A stretch of DNA of 64,000 nucleotides, taken from Sporopachydermia quercuum (lineage: Eukaryota). Below, one piece after another: positions 1,775 through 62,172 of the stretch. Numbering within the stretch: position 1 is the first letter of the stretch; each line of letters opens with the position of its first letter. The position numbers and the translations under genes were made by a program. The stretch spans positions 992,001-1,056,000 of the forward strand of contig BCGN01000003.1 of the NCBI GenBank assembly GCA_001599295.1, read 5' to 3'. A model generated the notes under the pieces. It saw nothing but the letters and a program-made list of their open reading frames with translations, did not search any database and was not told where the DNA came from.

Positions 1775-4047
1775 ATGCTTAGGAGATCCACTTCGTCCAA
1801 ATCTCTAAACAAGCTTGCTCAAGGTATACCTATGTAAGTTGAATGGAAATCTAATTGTCCATTAAGACTGTTTGTGTTTACTTCGTACCCTCTTAGTTTC
1901 TCTAATTATTATAGCTTACTAACAGCTGTTTTACTGGCAGGTGGGACTCTTCTGATCCTTCGCGAAATCCACCGCCAATACCTCCAAATCCTAACTCGAA
2001 TTTTGAGCAACCAACTGTACTGGCTTCAAATTTACAACTAAAATCTATATCCTCTTCTAACTTCAGTCCTAGAAAACCAGATAACATGCATTTGAAAAGC
2101 ACGACGACCGCGAGCGACGCGCGAGATGCCAATGCAGCAGATAAATCCAGTGCCAGTATCTTACCAGACTCTGAAAGTATCGAGAAAAGGGTTGATTTCA
2201 TCATTGATATTTCAACAAATATAAAAGATATAGTTCAACAAGTGAACCAAAAGGTCAAGAAAAGCCAAGTGGAATTCCAGAACCTTAGTAACCGATCTCG
2301 AGATAATGCATCACATTTGAAAGTATTGACTAACTGTGTAGAAAAAGCAGAATCTATTTCCAAGCAATCGGAAGAGCTTCTGAAGCAAGCTAATGATAGC
2401 TTGAAAGAGAATACTACTGTCAATCAACATCTAACAGAATCAGTTGATGATCTGGCCAACTCATTGAAAGCAGGCTTTGCGAAGGCGGGGAACGAACAGC
2501 ATGACGTAATCGACTCGCTGAAGTCAAGTTTAGAATCAATAGTTATTAACGAGTTACGGAAATTACAAGAAAAAATCTCTGAAAGTACGCAGGTAGTAGT
2601 TGATCGTGTTGAAGACAAGACAGATCTATCTAGCATTCATGAAAAACTTTCAGTTTTGAATAACATTGAGAACTTGGTTGTCTCTGGAAACTCAAAAATG
2701 AGAGAACAATTGGAAGATACTATCAACTCACAACTACAAAAGAATACAGCACCTTACACTAAATTGGAATCAAGTCTTCAAGCGTTAGAGCAATCAAATC
2801 AAGATAACCTCTCAACCCTTTCTTCTGTTCTGAGTGCTTTGAAAGATGGATCATCCAACAATTCTGCAAGTCAAATTCAAGAGATTCAAACAGGATTCCA
2901 AAATGTCAACGAACATATTAACAGAAAACTTGCTGACTTTGCATCTCAAAGCATTAAATCGGCGGCCCTTGAAGAAAAATTGAAAAATTATATTTCAGAT
3001 CTTTTGGCTAAGCAACTAGAGTTGAATACTACCTCTCAGATTGAGATATACAATAATTTGGTGCAGGGGAACACTAAGAAAATAACCAATACGATAGATA
3101 TTGCCAAAGAAATCATAACTGAAGCAGTGAAATCTAATCTTGGCCAGATCTGCGAAAGTTCACATTCCAACCAGCAACAATCAACACAAGAATTGAAAGA
3201 TTTTGTTTCAGAAAGATTTTTGTTAGTCACAGAACAAATAAATCAATCAATATACGACAACAACAAAGGCGATGTAGATGTATTAAAAAAAATACTCTCC
3301 GAGAATCTCAATACACAAACAAAACAATTTTCTGAACTGTTCTCAACTCATCATAAACAAATAATCTCTCAGTATTCCGAAATAAAAAATCAGAATGAGG
3401 AAGATAGGAAGCTATACGAAGAAGGAAATGAGAAGAGCAATCAAATTTCACAACTGAAGGAGCAATTATCATCTAAAGATTCTAGAATACAAGTATTGGA
3501 AGCGCAATTGGCTCAGTTGACTGAAAGGTTAGAGGTACAAGAGTCTTTAGCAGAATTGAAAGAAAAAGAACAGAAAACCCTAACGAATGTGGAAAAACTG
3601 AGAACAGCCTATGAAGTGAGATTGGAACATTTTGAAAAGCTAGAGGTTAGATATAATACACTTCAAGCTAAACTGAATGACGAGCTAATAAGTAAATACA
3701 AAACATTATTAGGAAGTTCGACAAATATTCTTGAGAACATGAATTCAAATAACACACTCAGCCTTAAGAAAAAGAATAAGAAGAACCTGAGATCTGTATC
3801 ATCATTTATTCCATCGAGTCCTTTAGCTGATTTACAAGCTAGAAAGGGATTCACAATTAGGGAAGAACCAATTGATTTATCACGCTACAATAGTGATGAT
3901 GAAGGAGATATTTCAGTTAACAAGGAAAACGTTCAAGATGATATTTATGTGACTAAACGTCCAGCTTCTTCAAAGCTCAATGCCCTGGAGAGTAGTAGTC
4001 CTTCTGGATCAGAAAGTGTTCAAACTCAAACCAGTGAACAATCATAA
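1775..4047 (+). CDS. Uncharacterised long coiled-coil protein, 2 exons: join(1775..1833,1941..4047)
   Basis: ATG at 1775 (MLRRSTSSKSLNKLAQGIP), 5'SS GTAAGT at 1834, branch TACTAAC 1917-1923, CAG ending 1940. Splicing joins in frame to the 653-aa ORF and gives IPMWDSSDPSRNPPPIP. The body is rich in Q/E/K/L/N heptads. Function not assignable. Confidence 0.8.
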
Positions 4048-10596: not shown

Positions 10597-13500
10597 TCAT
10601 TTCTTCAGAGGCATTAAAACAGGGAAATCTGACGAATATGCAGCAGATGGTGACAGTGTTACGTTACCAGAAAACGACCCTCTCGTAGGTTTCACAGTGA
10701 TACCTGAAGCAACTGCATGATGTAACTCTGAGTGATCTTCAATTGGAGATGCAAAACTACCAAACTCATCGTCTTCATCAACAGAATTGCTCAAAGATTC
10801 GCTCGTAGAATTACCTGTAACTGTAGATGCACTTTTGGCGCCACCAGTAAGACTCCCAGGTTCATTTTGATCTAATGAGGTTGTTCTACTATGTGATTTT
10901 ATAACTCTATTACTCGTGAAACTGTTCGGCCGCATGATTTCTGTTTTTAGCTCCAAATTATCTTCAAATTCACCCCAATCATCGTCTCCGTTGCTATCAG
11001 AGAGTTTCTCAGCCCGAATATCCAAAGAAACTGTATGCGAGCTGTTATTTCCGGTAGTACTGTCTCTAGAAAGACTATTTCTGTTATAGCTGTCTCCATT
11101 AGCATTTTTCCTAGGTGACAATACGCTGCTCTCATCATTGAGCTTTTTTCTATGAGTCTCTGTTATCGAGATTCCCTGAAAACTCAAAGGCAATTGCGGT
11201 AAAGGATCAACCAGGTGTTCAGAGCTTGCATCGATATGCCTAACATCATGACCTTTCAAGGATGTATTCCTCGGCTGGATTGTACTGTCGGAAGTGAAAA
11301 ATGCAGCAAAATCTTTCAGCTGAGGGTTTGACAATCTCTGGTTTCCAGACACATTGGTAGAAGCGCTTATAATAACTGGACTAGTGATATGACTCTTTTG
11401 ATGCTGCTGATGCTGTTGGATAGAAGAAGTCGACTGTAATAAGTTTGATGAAGCACCAAGTACTGAAGGATTTAACGAGCCGCTGTTAAAAGAGGTTGAG
11501 GAGGAGATATCATGAGCAGGTGTTGATAGATCTTCAGAACCTGGAATGATGCTACTATTAGCAATGGCACTAATACCGGTGGAATTCACGTTGGAATTAG
11601 TTGTGTTAATACTGATTCCACTATCACTTTCCTTATCATTTACCAAGCTATTACTGCATATCTTCTTCGAGGAATTCGCTTTTTGGGGAACTAAAAGGTC
11701 AAATGAGAATACTCCATTGCTTTGTACTGGCGATGTAGCAGAACTGAAATTATTAATATTACTACTAGTATTACTATTACTATTAGTAGAATTAGCAGTA
11801 ATAGACGTAGATGTCATATCTAATAATGATTCTCCGCTGGCTACATTGAAAGACCTAGGAACAGGTCGGACAGGATTAGTCCAAGCAGTAGAAGCAGATG
11901 CAGAATTAACATTGGAGTTACTACTATTGACAGTATTGCTGTTGACTCCAACGCTTTCTTCGGCGTTTCTACTTGAATTGAAATCTCCCCATTCATTATC
12001 GTTATCATTATCATACTCATTAGCATCAATATCGCTATCATAACGTATATCTGAAACGTTTGTTGGTACACTGTAGATTCCAGCATCTCCTAATGCTTTG
12101 CTAGTGTCAAACACATCAAGATCATCATCATAAACTACAGATTTGTTGTAATCATACTCAGAGGGAGTCTTCGTGTTGTTACTACTAACAGTAGGATCGG
12201 TATTCTTCGCATAATTATTCCTACCTGCTGTATTCGGTCTTATTGTGTTGCTTGATGGTCCTGTATCAGGGGTAAGTGTTTCATTTACTCTTGCTTTTAT
12301 TCTTTCAGCATACGGTGCTGTTCTATCTTTCACTGCGCTAACAGAATTATTCCATGTCTGAGTGATTGACTCCATATTGGCTGATTTACTATTAGTTTGG
12401 GATGCTTCATTGTTGCTAATCTGTTGATTCTCAACATTGGTATTAGCATTGCTACTCGTACCGCTCGATGTAAACCTAGCAAAAAAGCCTGTTGATTTAG
12501 GAGGGCAAGTTGTAATATTACTAGTATCAGTAGGAGCATTGGCAACACTACTACTGACACTCTTATTGGTATTACTATCAACAGTCTGCTTCCTAGAACC
12601 CCAAGAAAAGAAAGATTTCCGCTTTTCGGAATCACCTGATCTTGTTTCAGCAACAGCATTCGTTACTACTTCTTTAGCATTCTTTTGATTCACTGACCCA
12701 GTAACTTGCGAAGTAATTCTATTCCTTGCTTGTCCTATGTTGCTTGCTTCTTTCTTAATTCTATCACTAGTCTTTTTCAGCTTATAAGCAGCCTGAGCAG
12801 CATTATAATAATCTTTCATAGAAACATTACCACCGCCGGAGCCAGAAGCATTTTTTGACACTTTAGCCAGTGATTGAAGCTGAGACACAAAACCATTGTT
12901 ACCTAAGTTTCTAGCCTCAGTGGTCATGCTGGAAACAGAATTCCCAATATTCGATACCTCTTTGTTAACTGAATTAATTGACGGTTGTAATTGCTTTTTG
13001 ATGGAAGACCCTGTTTGGGATATAAAAGATGTAAATTGCTGGTTATTACTTGTTGGGGCTCCCCATTGCAGCTCACGTGATCCCACACTGGTGTTTAAAT
13101 TTGTTTGTCTTGGGGAACTGGATCTAGCGCGGAGATTTTCTATGACATCATTATTATTTCCAATAGTTTGATTCTGAGGGCGCGCTGTTCTTGGTATTTT
13201 ATGCCGTTGTTCATTGAATGATCTCCGTTCTAGATCAGGTAGAGGTGCTTCATTATTGACATTGACTCCGTTATTGTCATCAAAGTCGTTATCAATGCTG
13301 GTTTTACTACCACTACTATTGTTATTGCTGATACTTCCCCTAGTTGCGAAAGCTGGGGTTGCAAACTGGGATTTACTAGGATCAATGTTGAATGGGAGTC
13401 CCATTGATGTTGTTCTTTTAGCCGCTGTGTCTATACTACTTGGTGATTTTTTACCATACATCATTGGCGAAGCTCTTCCGGATGATGATATTGGACTAGG

Positions 13501-14859
13501 ACTGAACCTATCTCTTTCTCGTTCTTTTTCTCTTTCATTCTGCGGATGTGATGACCATGAGAACGAGTACTCATCTGAAGTGTTTGCTTTAGTAGGCATT
13601 GACAAGTTTCTCCAGTTTTTAATTTGATTATCGGTTTGTCTATGTATGCTAAGCATATCCCATCTTAGTAGTATTTTGTTACTATATGAATTAGATTCGT
13701 TAGAGGTGAAATAAAATTGACGGGAGGGCCTCTGAAGTGAATTGTAGTATTTTCTTGCCTTTCCTATAAATATTTGGTTAGAATCTAGGTCTTCGAGCGT
13801 TATGTGTAAAGCAGAAAATATAGGAGGCAATGATTGAGTGGAAGGAGAGTCATTGGGAGTTTGGGAATCAGTGCTAGAGTCTTTTTCATTTTGCTGCTCC
13901 TTTAGTTCAATAGATTTCTTCTTCTCAAGATCGGTTTCATTGTCTCGTGCTTCATTTGCACTATCTTTAACATTATGGTCCCCACTATTATCAACTTTCT
14001 TTTCCGTATTTCTTTCATTGGCTTCACTATTCCCCCCTATTTCTTCTTTAGTGTTATATTTCTCTACTATAGTCGCTGAATTTGAGAATAAATCATTAAT
14101 TAAAGTGTCTAAAGGTGTCTTAAGAACAAACTCAGTTTCCACAGGTAAGACAGTTTCTTCATCTTGTTCAATTTCATTGTCGGTCTCATCAGGATCAACC
14201 AAATCATCATTCTCTTCAAAATTACCAAAATCATCAGAATCATCATCATCTATTTGTTGCATAGTGACATCGGCATCAGAGTCCGGATCTTCATCAGAGT
14301 CATTCGTTGAGTCACTATTTGTATCATCATTACAGGTCAATTTACTTATATCACTATCTTCGCCTTGTTTGATTGTAGCTTCATCTGTCGTATCAGTTGA
14401 CCCAGAATTGATATCTTTCATGCTATCTATTGTCCTACTGCTGCCAGGCAGGTCTGACTCAGGCTTTTCCACCGCCGCCCAAACGTTACTTTCTGAATCA
14501 ACCTCTGGTTCAGTAAGTACTCCAGGGGTCGCTGTCCCCGTATGCTTACTCTGAGTTTTCTTATTTGACAGTGAGAGCTTGAATAAAGAGCTGGTAGGAT
14601 TTGCAAACAAGCTTGATGATTTAGTCGCTTTCTTGGCGCTCTTATTATCACCATCGTTATCATCTTGCCATATAGACTCATCAAGAGGAGCATAGCCATA
14701 ATCCTCAACGTCAGAGTCAGACTGAGACTCTAATGCATCAACGTTAGATTCATTGTCGGAACGACCACCACCAGACTTAAAATTTGATAAAATTTGCTGT
14801 TGATTTGAAGTTTGAACATTTGCCCATGGAGATTCCTCCTCTGTTGGATGTCCGCTCAT
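10597..14859 (-). CDS. Large low-complexity (S/N/D-rich) protein with repeated acidic [FW]Gx F motifs; candidate clathrin-adaptor accessory protein
   Basis: 1420-aa uninterrupted ORF with DDFGNF, NEWGDF, DDWGEF and DEFGSF. One short non-repetitive island (KARKYYNSLQRPSRQF...LLRWDMLSIHRQ...KNWR). Confidence 0.75.
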   Translation of the reverse strand: MSGHPTEEESPWANVQTSNQQQILSNFKSGGGRSDNESNVDALESQSDSDVEDYGYAPLDESIWQDDNDGDNKSAKKATKSSSLFANPTSSLFKLSLSNKKTQSKHTGTATPGVLTEPEVDSESNVWAAVEKPESDLPGSSRTIDSMKDINSGSTDTTDEATIKQGEDSDISKLTCNDDTNSDSTNDSDEDPDSDADVTMQQIDDDDSDDFGNFEENDDLVDPDETDNEIEQDEETVLPVETEFVLKTPLDTLINDLFSNSATIVEKYNTKEEIGGNSEANERNTEKKVDNSGDHNVKDSANEARDNETDLEKKKSIELKEQQNEKDSSTDSQTPNDSPSTQSLPPIFSALHITLEDLDSNQIFIGKARKYYNSLQRPSRQFYFTSNESNSYSNKILLRWDMLSIHRQTDNQIKNWRNLSMPTKANTSDEYSFSWSSHPQNEREKERERDRFSPSPISSSGRASPMMYGKKSPSSIDTAAKRTTSMGLPFNIDPSKSQFATPAFATRGSISNNNSSGSKTSIDNDFDDNNGVNVNNEAPLPDLERRSFNEQRHKIPRTARPQNQTIGNNNDVIENLRARSSSPRQTNLNTSVGSRELQWGAPTSNNQQFTSFISQTGSSIKKQLQPSINSVNKEVSNIGNSVSSMTTEARNLGNNGFVSQLQSLAKVSKNASGSGGGNVSMKDYYNAAQAAYKLKKTSDRIKKEASNIGQARNRITSQVTGSVNQKNAKEVVTNAVAETRSGDSEKRKSFFSWGSRKQTVDSNTNKSVSSSVANAPTDTSNITTCPPKSTGFFARFTSSGTSSNANTNVENQQISNNEASQTNSKSANMESITQTWNNSVSAVKDRTAPYAERIKARVNETLTPDTGPSSNTIRPNTAGRNNYAKNTDPTVSSNNTKTPSEYDYNKSVVYDDDLDVFDTSKALGDAGIYSVPTNVSDIRYDSDIDANEYDNDNDNEWGDFNSSRNAEESVGVNSNTVNSSNSNVNSASASTAWTNPVRPVPRSFNVASGESLLDMTSTSITANSTNSNSNTSSNINNFSSATSPVQSNGVFSFDLLVPQKANSSKKICSNSLVNDKESDSGISINTTNSNVNSTGISAIANSSIIPGSEDLSTPAHDISSSTSFNSGSLNPSVLGASSNLLQSTSSIQQHQQHQKSHITSPVIISASTNVSGNQRLSNPQLKDFAAFFTSDSTIQPRNTSLKGHDVRHIDASSEHLVDPLPQLPLSFQGISITETHRKKLNDESSVLSPRKNANGDSYNRNSLSRDSTTGNNSSHTVSLDIRAEKLSDSNGDDDWGEFEDNLELKTEIMRPNSFTSNRVIKSHSRTTSLDQNEPGSLTGGAKSASTVTGNSTSESLSNSVDEDDEFGSFASPIEDHSELHHAVASGITVKPTRGSFSGNVTLSPSAAYSSDFPVLMPLKK

Positions 14860-15837
14860 TATAGATTATGCTGCATAATAGTAAAGATATGTGTATATGG
14901 GTACTACAATTGGACTGTGAGATGCTAGGAGGTGACTGGTGAAATAAGGAATCCGAAAAAAGTGAAAGTATGAACAACAGGAACATATATTTGCGAGTCC
15001 TTTAGAAGTAGTAGAGTATCAGGATTATTACTCAACATGCAACGGGGAAGCAATAGTTAATAATTAGATTATCAATGCTGTCTCTGTGATGATCAGTTAC
15101 TCCAGCAATATCAACTACCAGAACAGAATGAATGATGGCATAAATTTCGCGTACTTTCAATCCATATCTATTCGGAGTAAGACTATGACAAGTCGTTTAT
15201 GTCAATTCTCATAATCANGCATACTAATTTGCTTGGGAAAGTGCTATATCTAATGAAATACTGCTGATAGTGTTGTTATACTTGATATGAGTCGAAATGC
15301 TCCAGAACTGGGATAAGTATCGGATATTATACAAAGAGTATTATTTCCGGAATTGCTGTTGGGACTTCTGTATATTATCTCCGTATTTATGGAGCTCCGG
15401 AAACTATATCGGTCAGTGAAGAGTGAAACGAGTAGGAAGAAGTACCAATTAGCTGCTCTCGCCAGTTAGAGAAGAATTGCAAACAAAAACTGAGTATACT
15501 GAGCGTCTAAAGAAATGTGTCATACTTTCAATAGAACCAAGTTTGCAAATCAATACCTATCCAATAGTAAGACTCCTATCCCTCTGTTTTTGATCTCTAT
15601 ATCTTCAGAAGCGCCCTCCACCATCTGATAGCATCTACCATTTACTCTATTAAATATGACATAATCATATATCTGTTCCCCATGCAAATTCAATCTTTTC
15701 ACATGAATTTGTCTTTCCTATAGACATTTCTTTCTATCCTCTTCTTGTTTTCATTTATCTAATGAACATTGACTTATATAACTGAATCCTTTTATACCGT
15801 TATGTTTTAGTGGTGCTACTCTACAGACTAATACACA

Positions 15838-34927: not shown

Positions 34928-37900
34928 ATGGATTTTTCTATTCCATCAGATGCACCACCTGAACTGGTGTCAGCTTTACAGGTGCTAATAGACGAATACT
35001 CGGAAGGTGATTTAACAGAGAAAGGCTACTTTAAGAAAAGAGATGCATTGTTATCGAGCTTCTCATCGGCGATTAAGAACTTGTCACCACAGGTATCAGG
35101 CAGGGAGTCGTACAATGGGTCAAACTCAGGCGGTGAAAGCTTCAATCATTCTTTTTCAACTGATAATAATATCAGAGCAGATTCTATCACATCATCAGTA
35201 ACGTCGTCAGGTCGCGATGGGTCATATTTTTTAGCGCGACCGCAGTTTGGACATGCTCGGGGTTTTTCCTCGGGCTCTTATATTGAATATACTGGAATGA
35301 CAGACTCTGATGATAATTATCGCACACCACCAGCAAGGTCATTGGCTTCACCACATCGAGAACCTGTAGCACATTTTCTACCTCCACCTCCTCCTACAAT
35401 TCCATTACAGAAACCATTACTTCCACGAAAGATTCCCAAGCCAAAGGTTGAGACGTTCGACAATCTTCCTTTATTACTGCGGTTCAGAGGTAAAGCATAT
35501 GCAAGAGAACAAGCATTAACTGTACTAGATGCTAAAGGTAAAGATGTCGCTTCGATTACATGGGACAAACTACATTTGAAAGCAGAGAAAGTTGCACAAT
35601 TAATTAAAGCTCAACGGCAACTTCCACCCGGTGCTTGCACTACTTTACTTTATCGTGATAGTGATATAATAGATTTTGCAATTGCGCTTTTTGGTTGCTT
35701 TTTAGCTGGGGTTATTGCTGTTCCAATTGCACCTGATTTCCAACCAGAAGATATCCTCCAAATTCTATCGGCAGCAAACTGTAAATTAATTCTCACAACT
35801 GAAGCTATACATAAGCAGTTTCAGAAGGCTACGCAAGAATCGGGGAACTCAGTGACATGGCCTAAAAGTGTGATTTGGTGGAAAACAGATGAATTTGGTA
35901 CCTACAAAGCTCCATCTAGAGATGCAGATCTACCACCATTGCAAGTACCAGATATTGCTTATATAGAATACTCAAGATCACCAATAGGTGAATTAAGAGG
36001 TATTGTTTTGTCACATCGAACTCTGCTTCATCAAATGAGTCTTTTGGCGGATGTTCTTCAATCCCGTGATGGTAAATCTTACCGCCGAAACGCCACAAAG
36101 TTTTCCGCCAATCGTCACGTGTTTTTATCGTTCTTAGAACCTCGGCAATCAACGGGTCTCATATTGGGGTTACTTTTCTCGGTATATTCTGGAAACCCTC
36201 TACTTTGGGTTCCGAGAGACGCCTTAACAGTATCAGGACTTTATGCTCACATAATCACTAAATGGAGTGTAGCAGTGCTTTTAGCTGATTATAATGGCCT
36301 AACAAAAGTAGCATTTGACTATCAACAAAGACCAGCGTTAACTACTAAGAAGAAAAGAATAGATTTTAGTTCCTTGCGATGGTGCCTAATCAATTCTCTT
36401 ACTATCCGATCAGATACACATGAATTGTTAGCTGATCGCTGGCTCAAACCTTTAGGTTGTCCTAGAGCGCGTGATGTGTTGGCGCCAATGCTTACCTTAT
36501 ATGAATATGGCGGGATGGTGATATCAATGCGAGACTGGCTAGGCCATAGTGAAACTCTCGAAGGACCTGACAGTGGAAATGGATCTCAGGGAGAAATCGG
36601 ATTCGATTCAATGTCAATAGCGCGAAATGATAATGACTCTGATGATGATTCAGGGCCTAATCCTGCTGCTTTGACAGAACTGCTGATTGATAAAAAAGCA
36701 TTGACAGTAAACGCCATTAAAATCATGTCAGAAACTGGCCAGAAACCTGATTTGGCCTGCTATATTAGAGTAGGTTCTTTTGGTTTCCCTATTTACGATG
36801 CGACTCTAGTTATTGTCAATCCTGAGACTAAACAGTTAAGCGCCGAGATGGAAGTAGGGGAAATCTGGGTCGATTCCCCTTGTATTTCGGGTGGATTTTG
36901 GAACTTGAAGTCGGAAACTGAAGCTATCTTTAGAGCTAAATGTACTGGTGATCCATCAATTGAAGATTTGAATTTCTTACGTACTGGACTAATGGGATTC
37001 TTGTACCGCGGTAAAGTATATGTTCTTGGTTTATATGAAGATCGTATAGTACAAGAAGCCAGATTGATTCCTCCTGATACTGATGTTGATGTCAGAGAAT
37101 TTTCTTATACGACTCAAGGATTATCTGTTAGATATCATTATTCTGAGCATTTATTCAAAACATTGGATTTAAACCTTGGAATGATGAAAGGATCCAATAC
37201 TATGCATGATTTTGCTGTGTTTAATATAACATTGAATGATCAAACGTTACCAGTAATAGTAATAGAAACGCCGGCTGCTATTCCCGAGACTAGTCCAAAG
37301 GACCCTACTCGGGAATTTATCAATCTCGATACGCTAGAAAAAATAGCTGCTCAGGCAATGAGATGTTTGCAAGATTCCCATCATTTATATGTATATTGTG
37401 TTCAAATGGTCCCTCCGAAAACTCTACCAAGAACTTATAAATGCGGTAGAAAGGAGATTGCCAATTTGATTTGCCGAAGAAGGTTCACTCAAGGCCGTTT
37501 ACCAGCTATGTATGTCAAATTTGGTATAGAAAAGGCTGTGGCTGATATCCCATGTGGTGCGGATCTTTCCGGTGGCGTTTGGTCCCGGTATATTTCCAAT
37601 TTGAGAACTGAAGGCTTAGTACCGGCCGAGGAACAACTATCAGGCATTAATATGGTTGCTGTAACACGGGACGATAGAACTCAAACTGATATCAGCCGTT
37701 TTGGAAATCTGTTGGAAATTCTACTATGGAGAATTGAAAAATCTCCTGATGAATTAGCGTTCTGTCGTCTTGATGAAAAACTTAAAGATGATAAAGGAGT
37801 ATCATGGAAACGATTTGATTTGAGAGTAGGTGGAATGTGTCAACAATTGCTGAATAAATATAAAATAGCCCCAGGATCCAAAGTCTTACTTGTGTATACC

Positions 37901-39601
37901 TTAAGTGAGGATTTTGTTGTTGCTTTATATGCTTGTTGGCTGGCAGGTTTGGTTCCTGTACCTTTTTATCCTTTAGATCCTATTCGAGCTGAAGAAGAAT
38001 CTGATAGGTACCTGAAAGCATTGAAGACATTGAATATTAAAGCAGTGTTTGTTAACCATGAAGTAGAACAAACAATGAAACATGGTGACCTTTCGACAAA
38101 GCTTAAGAAGCAGGCCAGTAAATGGAAGGTTATTCTTCAGAAACCGCATAATACCAGCAAATATAAAGGCGTGACAACTAAAGGTCTGAAATCAAGATTA
38201 GTTGAAGCTCAGCATAAAGCTCAAATGAAATCTCCAGGCACGGCTCTAATATGGCTTGTATATACACCTGATGGAGCACGTATAGATGTTACGTTATCAC
38301 ATCAGGCGTTATTAAGGATCTGTAAAGTTATGAAGGAAACATGTCAATTATCTGCTACCAGACCATTACTTGGCTGTGTTAGGCATACTTCAGGTATTGG
38401 CTTTTTGCAAGCTACAGTGTTAGGGGTGTTTGTAGGTGCATCAACATATCTTATACCAACAGCAACGTTTTCAGCTGATCCTCGATGTTTTTTCAAAGCT
38501 ATTTCACTGTTTAAAATCAAGGATACCTATGTTACACCTAATATGCTTATACATGCTATGCAGAAGCTGAAAAGTGAGTTATCTCTTGAAAACATGGAAA
38601 ATCTAATGATTGCATATGATGGCAGATTCCATGCTCAGCTACAATCGCGAGTTCGACAATTTTTACTCTCGTTGAAAATGCCTAAATGGTCGTTATCGAA
38701 TATCTATGAACATTTCTTTAATCCTTTCATTACAACTCGTTCATATATGGGATTTGAACCTGTTACCTTATGGTTAGATCCTATTGCATTACGTCAAGGA
38801 TATGTATCAGTGGTTAACCCCGAGAATGACTCAACAGCAGTAGCCGTTCAAGATTCAGGAATGGTCCCTGTTTGCACTCAAGTAGCCATTGTTAACCCTG
38901 AAACATGCAGACTGTGTCGTGCAGGAGAATACGGTGAAATATGGGTTTGTTCTGAAGGATCAGCTACAGGGTTTGTTCATGAGCTTTATAGAGATAAAAT
39001 TCTTGTTCAGGAACAAATGGATGGTAGAATTGTTGGTGAGAACCCAGATGTTGAGTATTTCCGCACTGGAGATGTTGGATTTTTGCATACAATAAGTAAG
39101 ACTTCAGGAACAGGAGGATTTGTAGTTGATATGCAAATGTTATTTGTATTAGGAAGTATCGCCGACACTTTTGAAGTTATGGGATTATTACATTTTGCAG
39201 CAGATGTTGAAAGAACGGTTGAGAAATGTCATTCAAATATTTGTTCTGGTGGAGCATGTGTTATACAGATTGGTGGTTATGTAGTCATATTATGTGAGGT
39301 TCAACGAAGAAAGTTTATTGCATCTTTAGTACCCTTGATTGTTACCGAGCTTTTGAATAAACATCAGCTTGTAGTTGATGTTGTGGCTTTTATTGATAAA
39401 GATAAGCTACCAAGATCACCACTTGGAGAAAAACAGAGAAGAAAGACAATCCAGATGTGGGTGGAGAAGAAGTTCAATCCTATCAATAAGTATGGTGTAT
39501 GTGCAGGAGAGCAAGCTTTATTGAATCGCTTGGTGATGCGTGGTGAGCTTTCCGGAGATTATGAAGTAGCTGTTTCGAGTCAAGCTCCAGTGAGGAAATG
39601 A
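34928..39601 (+). CDS. CMR2: DIP2/Cmr2 family protein: DMAP1-binding domain plus two FAAL-like adenylation domains
   Basis: EYSEGDLTEKGYFKKR (DMAP-binding), IAYIEYSRSPIGELRGIVLSH, VGEIWVDSP, FLRTGLMGF, QDSGMVPV, YGEIWV and YFRTGDVGFLH. First ATG at 34928. Confidence 0.93.
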   Translation: MDFSIPSDAPPELVSALQVLIDEYSEGDLTEKGYFKKRDALLSSFSSAIKNLSPQVSGRESYNGSNSGGESFNHSFSTDNNIRADSITSSVTSSGRDGSYFLARPQFGHARGFSSGSYIEYTGMTDSDDNYRTPPARSLASPHREPVAHFLPPPPPTIPLQKPLLPRKIPKPKVETFDNLPLLLRFRGKAYAREQALTVLDAKGKDVASITWDKLHLKAEKVAQLIKAQRQLPPGACTTLLYRDSDIIDFAIALFGCFLAGVIAVPIAPDFQPEDILQILSAANCKLILTTEAIHKQFQKATQESGNSVTWPKSVIWWKTDEFGTYKAPSRDADLPPLQVPDIAYIEYSRSPIGELRGIVLSHRTLLHQMSLLADVLQSRDGKSYRRNATKFSANRHVFLSFLEPRQSTGLILGLLFSVYSGNPLLWVPRDALTVSGLYAHIITKWSVAVLLADYNGLTKVAFDYQQRPALTTKKKRIDFSSLRWCLINSLTIRSDTHELLADRWLKPLGCPRARDVLAPMLTLYEYGGMVISMRDWLGHSETLEGPDSGNGSQGEIGFDSMSIARNDNDSDDDSGPNPAALTELLIDKKALTVNAIKIMSETGQKPDLACYIRVGSFGFPIYDATLVIVNPETKQLSAEMEVGEIWVDSPCISGGFWNLKSETEAIFRAKCTGDPSIEDLNFLRTGLMGFLYRGKVYVLGLYEDRIVQEARLIPPDTDVDVREFSYTTQGLSVRYHYSEHLFKTLDLNLGMMKGSNTMHDFAVFNITLNDQTLPVIVIETPAAIPETSPKDPTREFINLDTLEKIAAQAMRCLQDSHHLYVYCVQMVPPKTLPRTYKCGRKEIANLICRRRFTQGRLPAMYVKFGIEKAVADIPCGADLSGGVWSRYISNLRTEGLVPAEEQLSGINMVAVTRDDRTQTDISRFGNLLEILLWRIEKSPDELAFCRLDEKLKDDKGVSWKRFDLRVGGMCQQLLNKYKIAPGSKVLLVYTLSEDFVVALYACWLAGLVPVPFYPLDPIRAEEESDRYLKALKTLNIKAVFVNHEVEQTMKHGDLSTKLKKQASKWKVILQKPHNTSKYKGVTTKGLKSRLVEAQHKAQMKSPGTALIWLVYTPDGARIDVTLSHQALLRICKVMKETCQLSATRPLLGCVRHTSGIGFLQATVLGVFVGASTYLIPTATFSADPRCFFKAISLFKIKDTYVTPNMLIHAMQKLKSELSLENMENLMIAYDGRFHAQLQSRVRQFLLSLKMPKWSLSNIYEHFFNPFITTRSYMGFEPVTLWLDPIALRQGYVSVVNPENDSTAVAVQDSGMVPVCTQVAIVNPETCRLCRAGEYGEIWVCSEGSATGFVHELYRDKILVQEQMDGRIVGENPDVEYFRTGDVGFLHTISKTSGTGGFVVDMQMLFVLGSIADTFEVMGLLHFAADVERTVEKCHSNICSGGACVIQIGGYVVILCEVQRRKFIASLVPLIVTELLNKHQLVVDVVAFIDKDKLPRSPLGEKQRRKTIQMWVEKKFNPINKYGVCAGEQALLNRLVMRGELSGDYEVAVSSQAPVRK

Positions 39602-40577: not shown

Positions 40578-40985
40578 ATGTTTGCGAAAGCATCAAGAAA
40601 TGGGATATTCGTCAGTAGGCAAGCAAGCCAATCTATTCGATCATTCACATCAACAGGAGCCAAGATGATCCAAGAGATTAAAGCTATGAAAGATTTCCAA
40701 TCCTCTATTGAAAAGCCCAAACTGAGTGTTGTTGATTTCTATGCTACCTGGTGTGGACCTTGTAGAGCTATTGAGCCAGTGTTCTTGAATTTTGAGAAAC
40801 AATTCCCAGATGCTTCTTTCCTCAGAGTAGATGTTGATGAAGCCAATGATATTGCTATGGAATATGGTGTGACTGCCATGCCTACATTTATGTTATTTAA
40901 AGATGGTGCCAAGTTGACAACTATTGTTGGTGCTAATCCTGCTGCTTTACAAAAAGCTATTACACAGTTTGTTAAAGATGAATAG
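40578..40985 (+). CDS. TRX3: Mitochondrial thioredoxin with N-terminal presequence
   Basis: VVDFYATWCGPC active site and AMPTF. Leader MFAKASRNG...IRSF is rich in R/S/A and has no acidic residues. Adjacent to the AHC2-like gene, like YCR082W-YCR083W. Confidence 0.9.
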   Translation: MFAKASRNGIFVSRQASQSIRSFTSTGAKMIQEIKAMKDFQSSIEKPKLSVVDFYATWCGPCRAIEPVFLNFEKQFPDASFLRVDVDEANDIAMEYGVTAMPTFMLFKDGAKLTTIVGANPAALQKAITQFVKDE

Positions 40986-41229: not shown

Positions 41230-41709
41230 TCACTGCTTACCATCAAATAACCTAGTTGCAGCAAAAGGTGCCTGATGCTTCAATAAATCTTGGCTAATAC
41301 CTTCGTCGAAAGCTGTGGCGTTTTCATTCTCGAGTAGCTTGTATTTATTCCAATCTATAACTGGAGGTTGAACTATGTTTTGACTTTTTACTTGTTTTAA
41401 TTCACTTATTCCACCTGTAGCCATAAGTTCTTGTACAACTGACTCTGGTTCACTTGATTTTTTGCTCTTCAAGTCCTGTAGTATCCTTATATCTGATTCT
41501 GCCTTTTCTTTCTGGCTTTTCAGCAGTGACAGCGTAGAACATAGTGCTATGTAATCTGCGTTAGACTCTAAAGGTTCTATATTTTGTTGATCGGTATTTG
41601 TTGTATTCTTGTCCTCATTGGAAGATGAGCTATTTATTTCAAGCAATTTTTCAGTGCCTTTATTATCTAATTCCCCGTTCTTTGTCTCTTGATCATAATT
41701 CTCTGCCAT
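41230..41709 (-). CDS. AHC2: Small protein resembling Ahc2 (ADA HAT complex) and the ZZZ3 helical region
   Basis: NADYIALCSTLSLLKSQKEKAESDI and QNIVQPPVIDWNKY. Next to TRX3, as AHC2 is in S. cerevisiae. First ATG at 41709. Confidence 0.6.
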   Translation of the reverse strand: MAENYDQETKNGELDNKGTEKLLEINSSSSNEDKNTTNTDQQNIEPLESNADYIALCSTLSLLKSQKEKAESDIRILQDLKSKKSSEPESVVQELMATGGISELKQVKSQNIVQPPVIDWNKYKLLENENATAFDEGISQDLLKHQAPFAATRLFDGKQ

Positions 41710-42652: not shown

Positions 42653-43766
42653 AATGGCTGTTTTATGTGTTTTGATGCTTTTAATGTATTTTGATGAGTG
42701 AAAGGTGCTGGTAGCATAAATATATGAAGTGGGGTCAACAGAGAATCAACGAACGCAATATCTCCAGTAGACCTGTTGCTAAAAGCAGCAACAGCTTTAA
42801 CTCTGCTTATATTTAATCCTGTCTCAAAATAGCCATATGACACGTATTGGTCAGGATCATCATTCTTAAAAGTATATTTCAATGACAGGCATACAGGGTA
42901 CAAAGATATTATTACCTTCTGTATGGTGATTTCACATAATACCAGCTATTTGGAAGGTTGATGTGATTGAAAAATGTATCATTATCAACTATCTTCATAC
43001 AACATCATATAAATATGTTGATTATGCTCTGATATAATAAGTAATGAAAAGATATCATGTTTATTTGATGCATTGCTAGTCTACTATTAAGTTAATTCTC
43101 TAGTAAGCAAAAGAATGATGGTCATTATCGTATGATCTCGTATAATAAAACTACTATAGTAACAATAAGTTACATTCAATATATAAATAATTCTTTAAAT
43201 TAACATATACAACCATAATATCAAAGTAAACTAAACGAAAGTAAAATCAAAAGAAATATGTATATCCTGTAATCGATAGAAATAAAGATAAAAGAAATAG
43301 CTGTACAGCCAAGTAAATGAATNAATAAATAAATAAAGCCAATGCTACCCCTTTTTTCTCTCCTTTTCTCTCCTTTTCTCGGTTCCCCTTCTCCCCAATT
43401 AGCAATAGAACGAATCAAATAATAAACGGGTATAAAGAAAAATAAACATAGGTTAAAGTGAAAAAAAGTATTGATGATTGAGTATGAAAATTGATACCAT
43501 ATAGGAACAATGTATGATATAGATAATAGGAAACTCATGAACAAGTGAATAATAGAAGGAAAAAATATAAAGAAATTGAACCCCCAATAATGCCGAAAAT
43601 ATATGGTAATGCAATTATTTCAGTCAAATGAAAAAGTACTAAATGTTTATATGCGTATCCTGCATACAAATTTTATTCCATATCAACAGTAGTACTTTAC
43701 TTTTACCACAGTAGATAGTAGATAGTAGATGATGATTGAACGTTGATGCCATTAAATGTAATTTCA

Positions 43767-47327: not shown

Positions 47328-47330
47328 GAA

Positions 47331-47404
47331 TGATTCGACCCAGGATCGAACTGGGGACGTTCTGCGTGTTAAGCAGATGCCATGACCAACTAGACCATCG
47401 AACC
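47331..47404 (-). tRNA. tRNA-Val(AAC), intronless
   Basis: Reverse complement GGTTCGATGGTCTAGTTGGTCATGGCATCTGCTTAACACGCAGAACGTCCCCAGTTCGATCCTGGGTCGAATCA has a 7-bp acceptor stem, anticodon stem TCTGC/GCAGA around TTAACAC, and T-loop GTTCGATC. Confidence 0.97.
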
Positions 47405-48010
47405 ATCTTAAATGCTTGTGTGATCCTTACATCTTTCTGAAGATATTTTCACATTACAACTTTACACCTCTTCGCCTACTNTGGGTCAAAATTTAGCACA
47501 CAAAAAACGAAAACACGAAACTTATATTACTGTAATTATTCAATTCCCAAACCTTTTACTTACTTCTTAACAAGAACAATTAATCTAAAAATCTATTTCT
47601 ATGCCGTTTTTCTTTTGTTAGGCACTTAACTTGTCAATCATTTATAGATACATTCATGTATTCATTTGTATGTGTATAGGCATTTCAACAGATTTCCTTC
47701 CTGCCTTTCTTTGTTGGAATTGTGAATCGTGTTGTATTGACAGTACACAAGAATTATCATATATAGCTGTGGTTTGCCTCCTAGAATAGCATATAAGACA
47801 AAACGACTGAACTGAACAGCTATACGTATGTTCTTGAGGCTTAGTTGAAGAGTTAGGGAACTGATGTTCAAAGGGGATAATTGGTTATATGAATCATATG
47901 ATTGCTTGCCTTGTCTTTATTGAGCTATTGTGATCAGAAGCGAGATATTATAGGAAGCAAAGCTAACACATTGCTAGCTTATTCTAATTGCCTGTAAATA
48001 AAGATACAAC

Positions 48011-61240: not shown

Positions 61241-62172
61241 TTAGAAGAACAACTCTTTAAGAATTCTCAAAGTATCATCAGGAGACTTAACAGAGTGTCC
61301 AACGGTTCGATCATCAATGTAAATTTCCCAATCATTGCCTCCTTTATATGCCTTATCACCAAAGAAGTGAATAACATCGAAATGCTCATCAGCAACGTGT
61401 TGAAGACAGTATGTCTTATCCCAGCCAGTGGGGAAAACATCGAAAGAAATTTGTCCTCCGATAGAATAGGTCAATCCAAAATCAGGGAATTCTTTCTTTA
61501 AAGCTTCCACCATATCAGCACGTACGTTATTAGCAAGATCAAACTTTTCATAGTCATTTCTTTCTTCAGTGGAAGCATTTCTTCCAATAGGAGAAATGTT
61601 GATCATACCATTTCTGAACTCAACGAAAGTGCCTCTTCTAATTGGCAGATCTAAGTTGGCCAAGTAGATTAAAATCCACTTAATGAGCTTATTGTATTTC
61701 TCTTCACCAATCCAATTGATGAAACTTTGACCAGCAAATTTCTTCCCTAGCTTATAGGCGGTCAAACCGTTTTCAGAGAAGCAGTAGTCAAACATTTCCA
61801 AGACTGTTGATGTTAGTTATTCATATTTGCATACAGGTCCCTCATAATCAAAAGCTATTCTCAATTTTACAGATACTTACCATCATCACCTAATTGTTGC
61901 CTTTGCTTGCTTAAATCACTACCCCCAACAAAACCAATAACAACCTTTTTTCTCAATTCTGCTAAAGTCTTTTTCATCTCATCAGAAATGTGCTATCATA
62001 GCAATGTTAATACATCTAGGCCTCTTGCTTAAAGTATCAATACAACATGAATATGCTACTTCCCATAATCAATTCTACTTACAAGTCTAGCAGGAGTCAA
62101 GGTTCCGTCAACATCGAATAAAACCAATACCTTCTTTTCTCCCCTTTGATCAAATGGTAAAACTACACTCAT
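61241..62172 (-). CDS. SEC53: Phosphomannomutase, 3 exons: complement(join(61241..61803,61881..61992,62083..62172)), 254 aa
   Basis: Exon 1 has the HAD motif [12 protein letters not shown], exon 2 has GFVGGSD, exon 3 has [29 protein letters not shown] and FFGDK. Introns are 61993-62082 (GTAAGT, TATTAAC, TAG) and 61804-61880 (GTAAGT, AACTAAC, CAG). Confidence 0.96.

Follow-up and report, generated by a model that had tools for sequence, protein, structure and literature searches.

The 64,000-nucleotide stretch of DNA analysed here (the window) carries on its reverse strand, at positions 41230..41709, an open reading frame for a protein of 159 aa that begins with an ATG and ends in a stop codon at 41230-41232. 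This frame is our AHC2-like candidate, and the protein core quoted in the original prediction is indeed present in its translation. A Pfam scan of the 159-aa protein reached no family; a match to PF22511 (PBP2) at E 0.01 scored 16 bits against a cut-off of 27 and was dismissed. The neighbouring gene, at 40578..40985 on the forward strand, encodes a TRX3-like thioredoxin of 135 aa (PF00085, E 1.3e-27) that serves as a synteny anchor. The genes run towards each other, and their stop codons are 244 bp apart. In the thioredoxin the Pfam domain starts at residue 37 of 135, following an R/S-rich N-terminal extension of about 30 residues whose composition fits a mitochondrial form. The claim that TRX3 is the neighbour of the ORF is thus borne out by a thioredoxin with an N-terminal extension at this distance.

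The remainder of the window has a number of features that we record for completeness. A 1557-aa DIP2-like protein is encoded at 34928..39601 on the forward strand and contains DMAP1-binding, AMP-binding, Mug62 and DIP2-like AMP domains. Two other long frames, at 10597..14859 on the reverse strand (1420 aa) and at 2086..4047 on the forward strand (653 aa), match no Pfam family at E<=1e-5. For the phosphomannomutase ORF at 61241..61795 on the reverse strand, the match to the Pfam profile begins only at position 38 of 221; a first exon further upstream, set off by an intron, is probable. The only tRNA gene found in the window is a tRNA-Val with anticodon AAC at 47330..47405 on the reverse strand. 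The GC content of the window is 36.8%. Single N bases occur at 15218, 32198, 43323, 47481, 48592 and no fewer than five further positions, and one of them gives rise to an X in a spurious 105-aa frame at 43221..43538.

With the 159-aa protein as query, phmmer run exhaustively over 1.84 billion cluster representatives returned 79 proteins at E<=1e-3, nine of them at E<=1e-10, and every one of the 79 matches through query residues ~45-157. A word-indexed search with the single protein gave 49 candidates, none at E<=0.01. We scanned all 79 relatives against Pfam at E<=1e-3. In nine of them (P0033, P0048, P0050, P0059, P0068, P0071, P0072, P0076 and P0080) a Myb/SANT domain follows the matched stretch, and five of the nine (P0048, P0059, P0071, P0072 and P0076) have a ZZ finger in addition; no Pfam family besides these two was found in the 79 proteins. 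Five more relatives (P0040, P0049, P0054, P0067 and P0074) are ZZZ3-type fragments in which an F-E-[TS]-D motif precedes the domain. Altogether 14 relatives are of ZZZ3 type, with library-wide phmmer E values from 1.5e-6 to 9.6e-4, and the other 65 are free of SANT and ZZ. Fifty-one of these 65 are compact, and in 14 the domain is split in two by an insert.

The split-domain proteins (P0039, P0041, P0043, P0056, P0060-P0064, P0066, P0069 and P0077-P0079) form one branch of the domain tree described below (SH-aLRT 98). Their insert measures roughly 35-90 residues and lies between the helices and the P-x-x-Q...W...Y segment, and in the four members checked (P0039, P0056, P0060 and P0062) the two halves score separately. 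As to names, a profile search of a set of 5.8 billion proteins returned the SANT-free family without any, and in the ESM Atlas the nearest entries to the 159-aa protein are unnamed Ascomycota clusters with scores of 0.85-0.89.

The relatives that carry SANT and ZZ domains could be assigned more readily. In metazoans, ZZZ3/Atac1 belongs to the core of ATAC, an Ada2a-Gcn5 acetyltransferase complex in which it is a stable subunit together with YEATS2, MBIP, KAT14, WDR5 and NC2beta. In the PDB, P0048 is matched best by the SANT domain of human ZZZ3 (2yum, E 2.2e-22) and by the ZZ structures 2fc7 and 6e83 of ZZZ3, and for P0071 the best SANT match is again 2yum (E 1.5e-17). A profile built from the 14 ZZZ3-type relatives (alignment A2) retrieved 208 proteins at E<=1e-3. 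Among the best 120 of these 208 matches about 44 are named ZZZ3 or "ada2a-containing complex component 1", and the proteins so named span molluscs and arthropods, a cnidarian and a sponge, as well as one vertebrate, Ambystoma, whose protein P0121 has 910 aa. Judged by their sequences, the SANT/ZZ-bearing relatives are ZZZ3/Atac1.

The original prediction held that the 159-aa protein follows, residue class by residue class, a segment that lies upstream of the SANT and ZZ domains of ZZZ3. Such a segment is real: in Ambystoma P0121 the domain spans residues 497-591, ahead of SANT at 662-710 and ZZ at 825-871. A short hairpin RNA sequence for human ZZZ3, printed in the part of PMC6138639 available to us, translates to I-V-W-D-Q-Y. 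Aligning A1, an alignment of 52 SANT-free sequences that includes the 159-aa protein, with the 14 sequences of A2 in hhalign gave a probability of 99.4% and E 5e-21 over 90 columns, figures that are inflated because both alignments were picked by one query. A comparison free of this same-query bias is provided by the 118 ZZZ3-type proteins newly brought in by the A2 profile (P0083-P0200). The A1 HMM recognised 114 of these 118 at E<=1e-3 and 111 at E<=1e-10, missing P0146, P0183, P0192 and P0198; its scores on ZZZ3-type proteins were 31-81 bits, and 236 shuffled or reversed decoys gave no match at E<=10. A profile search that starts from the domain does recover ZZZ3.

The reciprocal HMM was built on 39 ZZZ3-type proteins absent from the search results of the 159-aa protein itself, using their pre-SANT region only. 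It matched exactly one of the 307 stop-to-stop frames of the window, and that frame is the 159-aa ORF (45 bits, E 1.3e-13). All 68 SANT-free family members were matched at E<=1e-3 and none of 136 decoys was, and in each of three related metagenome loci the same HMM picked exactly one frame (three of 399 frames in all). Column by column, 27 of the 88 core columns are common to both groups, either in residue (at least 60% in each) or in residue class (at least 80% in each). In the numbering of the 159-aa protein the common residues include N50, D52, Y53, L56, L63, Q66, A70, D73, L77, P88, L95, Q110, P116, W120 and Y123, the column numbering beyond residue 103 having been adjusted by hand for a two-residue insert. 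The shared columns, the profile matches in both directions and the absence of decoy matches uphold the proposed resemblance, and they support the conclusion, at the level of sequence, that the domain of about 85 residues in the 159-aa protein and the pre-SANT region of ZZZ3/Atac1 are homologous.

The protein can be divided into three parts. Residues 1-42 (41584..41709, reverse strand, as are all coordinates in this paragraph) are polar, of low complexity, predicted to be disordered and not conserved; the first four 10-residue blocks have a mean pLDDT of 51-54 and there is no family consensus there. The domain common to ZZZ3/Atac1, which aligns upstream of SANT, comprises residues ~43-130 (41320..41583). 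It opens with a predicted long helix of 36 residues, 51-86 (41452..41559; pLDDT >90), followed by a predicted second helix, residues 88-98 (41416..41448), that starts from the conserved P88. Beyond the helices lies a conserved extended segment, residues 105-123 (41341..41397), of the form (P)-x-x-Q-x-hydrophobic-x-x-x-P-x-hydrophobic-x-W-x-x-Y, in which the 159-aa protein has V107 against the consensus P. The C-terminal tail, residues 131-159 (41233..41319), ends in R-L-F-D, a motif of the form R-[LIVM]-F-[DG] that is common in the SANT-free family: R-[LIVMF]-[FY] occurs within the last 30 residues in 28 of 52 SANT-free members. The idea that this tail corresponds to the V-R-G-R-x-x-D motif just before the ZZZ3 SANT domain was not supported. 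Of 122 ZZZ3-type proteins, just 27 have the literal pattern at a constant offset, and in a PSSM test 16 of 120 proteins had their best position within the pre-SANT window, where 11 would be expected.

The AlphaFold2 model of the 159-aa protein, computed with A1 as the alignment, places helices at residues 51-86 and 88-98, then an extended stretch and a short helix at 120-123, with pLDDT >90 over residues ~50-100. For comparison we modelled P0106, the named ZZZ3 of Solenopsis, from an alignment of 45 sequences (pTM 0.33); SANT and ZZ are modelled separately. This model has helices at 29-64 and 66-75, the equivalents of the two helices above, followed by an extended stretch and a helical turn at 95-97 (DSSP), with pLDDT >90. 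In these predicted structures the helix-helix-extended pattern is common to the two proteins. Pfam has no model for the domain, either in ZZZ3 or in the fungal proteins. A sequence search of the PDB gave two chance rows (E >1) for the single 159-aa protein and no match at E<=1 for the A1 profile, Foldseek found nothing in the PDB at E<=0.001, and the VIA wide structure search reached a best Z of 5.5, with all matches being generic helical hairpins.

The likeness between the 159-aa protein and ZZZ3/Atac1 thus concerns one domain of some 85-90 residues upstream of SANT, alike in predicted secondary structure and in the lengths of its elements, with a conserved N-x-D-Y, L, Q, A, D, L and P and then Q, P, W and Y. 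In other respects the proteins differ. The 159-aa protein lacks the SANT/Myb and ZZ domains and is far shorter than ZZZ3 proteins, which have 320-910 aa. The F-E-[TS]-D motif of the animal proteins is missing from it, and it falls on the opposite side of a split in the domain tree (SH-aLRT 97). That SANT and ZZ are missing, as originally predicted, was seen in the Pfam scan of the protein, which found neither Myb nor ZZ, and in searches with ZZZ3 SANT and ZZ profiles, which matched none of the 307 frames in the 64-kb window. The same two profiles matched none of the 399 frames in the three related loci.

The tree in question, built by maximum likelihood with a quick search, covers 98 core domains and only 88 columns (P0062 was dropped from the 99 rows for low coverage). 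It took in 17 of the 118 ZZZ3-type proteins retrieved with A2, hand-picked for named and diverse taxa, and its root is unknown. The split separates 29 animal-type ZZZ3 rows from the other 69, and two proteins with both SANT and ZZ, P0071 and P0072, fall on the SANT-free, fungal-type side. These two have the same domain, located at the N-terminus and without the animal F-E-[TS]-D motif, and on the tree they join the SANT-free proteins, not the animal proteins named ZZZ3; unlike the 159-aa protein, they have kept SANT and ZZ. P0071 is found identically in the Atlas, where its nearest cluster, of 88 members, is labelled "putative ZZ-type zinc finger-containing protein 3" and has Myb in 99% of its members, ZZ in 91%, and Zoopagomycota as its commonest phylum. 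By this one cluster label, a full-length ZZZ3-like protein seems to exist in early-diverging fungi. The position of P0071 and P0072 on the fungal-type side, the Zoopagomycota cluster and the Ascomycota clusters nearest the 159-aa protein together offer a weak lead, drawn from sequence comparison, that an ancestral SANT+ZZ protein may have lost both domains within fungi.

The Ahc2 protein of S. cerevisiae has 128 aa. AHC2 is YCR082W, and its product is described, in the portion of PMC3159981 at hand, as a subunit found only in the ADA complex, one that co-purifies with Gcn5, Ada2, Ada3, Sgf29 and Ahc1 and with nothing else; TRX3 is YCR083W and encodes a mitochondrial thioredoxin (from an extract of PMC4971067). 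By this numbering AHC2 and TRX3 are consecutive ORFs in S. cerevisiae, which agrees with the original prediction that Ahc2 is the TRX3 neighbour. The 159-aa protein resembles Ahc2 in being a small protein with no other recognised domain, encoded beside TRX3 or a TRX3-like gene; Ahc2, like ZZZ3, belongs to a Gcn5-Ada2 complex. It differs in gene orientation: both S. cerevisiae genes are W-named, whereas the AHC2-like and TRX3-like genes of the window are convergent. A further point against orthology is that no other gene in the window is known to match the chromosome III neighbourhood of S. cerevisiae. The likeness rests on gene context. The TRX3-like neighbour, combined with membership of a family whose animal members serve another Gcn5-Ada2 complex, makes orthology likely, and on this adjacency and the role in Gcn5 complexes, rather than on sequence, we regard the 159-aa protein as very probably the orthologue of S. 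cerevisiae Ahc2. Adjacency to TRX3 is not a general property of the family, since the three related metagenome loci have no thioredoxin neighbour (0 of 3); no wider synteny and no S. cerevisiae-like locus was seen at these loci.

The same observations can be read differently. The 159-aa protein might be a genuine relative of the ZZZ3 domain and still not be the Ahc2 orthologue, with Ahc2 itself unrelated and the protein here serving another SANT partner or acting as a lone regulator. This would accord with the want of a thioredoxin gene at the three related loci, with a gene orientation unlike that implied by the S. cerevisiae names, with the return of the SANT-free family without names from the 5.8-billion-protein set, and with the fact that the connection to Ahc2 was made from gene context and not from the Ahc2 sequence. 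However, it needs two independent coincidences, namely that the gene happens to have a TRX3-like neighbour and that ZZZ3 and Ahc2 both happen to be complex-specific subunits of Gcn5-Ada2 complexes, and it is met by a ZZZ3 pre-SANT profile that picks exactly one frame in the window and one per related locus. We consider this reading unlikely.

Two further explanations were already disfavoured and are much less probable still. Because a single long amphipathic helix makes up about half of the domain and structure searches yield only generic helical hairpins, the similarity to ZZZ3 could be put down to convergence, or to the compositional bias of a coiled-coil-like helix, instead of homology. None of the 236 and none of the 136 shuffled or reversed decoys was matched, however, and conservation extends into the non-helical segment (P116, W120, Y123), which scores separately in the split-domain subfamily. 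With 27 columns whose residue or class is common to both groups, and with no Pfam domain other than SANT and ZZ found beside this one in any of the 79 relatives, we judge convergence to be highly improbable. A chance open frame, or a fragment of a spliced gene with its SANT and ZZ exons elsewhere, might be suspected of an ORF that is short and has a low-complexity N-terminus, but such a frame would not be expected to have 79 relatives with conserved positions, the 244 bp up to the convergent thioredoxin gene leave little space, no SANT or ZZ frame occurs in the 64-kb window, and the genes at the three other loci are equally stand-alone. This explanation can hardly be credited at all.

Taken as a whole, the evidence makes it likely that the gene encodes a small nuclear adaptor that has neither SANT nor ZZ, in which the only conserved part is the ZZZ3-homologous domain of about 85 residues; this adaptor is most probably the Ahc2 orthologue. 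What such an adaptor may do is suggested by work on both complexes. According to the part of PMC3159981 available to us, Ada2-TAP from an ahc2 deletion strain loses Ahc1 together with Ahc2, whereas Gcn5, Ada2, Ada3 and Sgf29 stay, and the two-hybrid pairs Ahc1-Ahc2 and Ahc2-Gcn5 are cited there. On the animal side, an extract of PMC10591836 reports that YEATS2 and ZZZ3 assemble co-translationally through N-terminal regions that are unmapped. By analogy with these systems, the conserved domain would be a docking module that fits the protein into the HAT module of Gcn5, Ada2, Ada3 and Sgf29 and holds a partner particular to each complex, which would be Ahc1 in yeast and YEATS2 in animals. ZZ acts in ZZZ3 as a reader of the histone H3 tail, as stated in the accessible text of PMC6138639; with ZZ and SANT both lost, the chromatin-reading functions would be gone from the fungal form, and the SANT/ZZ-free protein would keep the role of a scaffold. 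The Ahc2 orthology, the docking role, the binding partners and the direction of domain loss are what we infer from these observations, the docking by analogy from two papers.

The original prediction went further and proposed that the yeast ADA complex is the fungal counterpart of the ATAC core. It noted that ATAC is usually called metazoan-specific, and the complex is indeed described as exclusive to metazoans in the available parts of PMC8430043, PMC8194025 and PMC13631227. No ATAC structure is said to be available. In the section of PMC6468242 at hand, BLAST is reported to give no Drosophila orthologues of Ahc1 and Ahc2, and the excerpt of PMC6138639 describes ZZZ3 as having two conserved domains, SANT and ZZ. 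We found no statement of an Ahc2-ZZZ3 or an ADA-ATAC link in a literature from which subscription journals were mostly absent, and InterPro, PANTHER or OrthoDB may already group the proteins. The SANT proteins Aaf1 and Aaf2 of Yarrowia, as presented in a part of PMC12482196, are unrelated.

To equate ADA with the ATAC core exceeds the evidence, since only one subunit has been linked. The presence of a ZZZ3 domain in a yeast protein nevertheless suggests a stripped-down fungal relative of a histone-acetylating complex supposed to be confined to animals. A broader reading, which we put forward tentatively and to which, taken whole, we give somewhat less than an even chance, is that both ADA and ATAC go back to a single Gcn5-Ada2 complex of ancestral opisthokonts, with an adaptor resembling ZZZ3 at its centre. 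Under such common ancestry the pre-SANT domain would be an old docking element by which the HAT module is connected to the subunits particular to each complex; the complete form with SANT and ZZ would persist in fungi that diverged early, and ascomycete yeasts would keep only the docking domain, as Ahc2.

The homology itself defines a third conserved domain in ZZZ3 and connects it with a protein of yeast whose known role is to hold Ahc1 on the HAT module. The domain is thereby a testable candidate for an assembly interface of ATAC and for an evolutionary link between ADA and ATAC. If the common-ancestor reading is true, ATAC would not have originated in metazoans, and in yeast Ahc2 there would be a minimal and genetically tractable model for the incorporation of ZZZ3 into ATAC.
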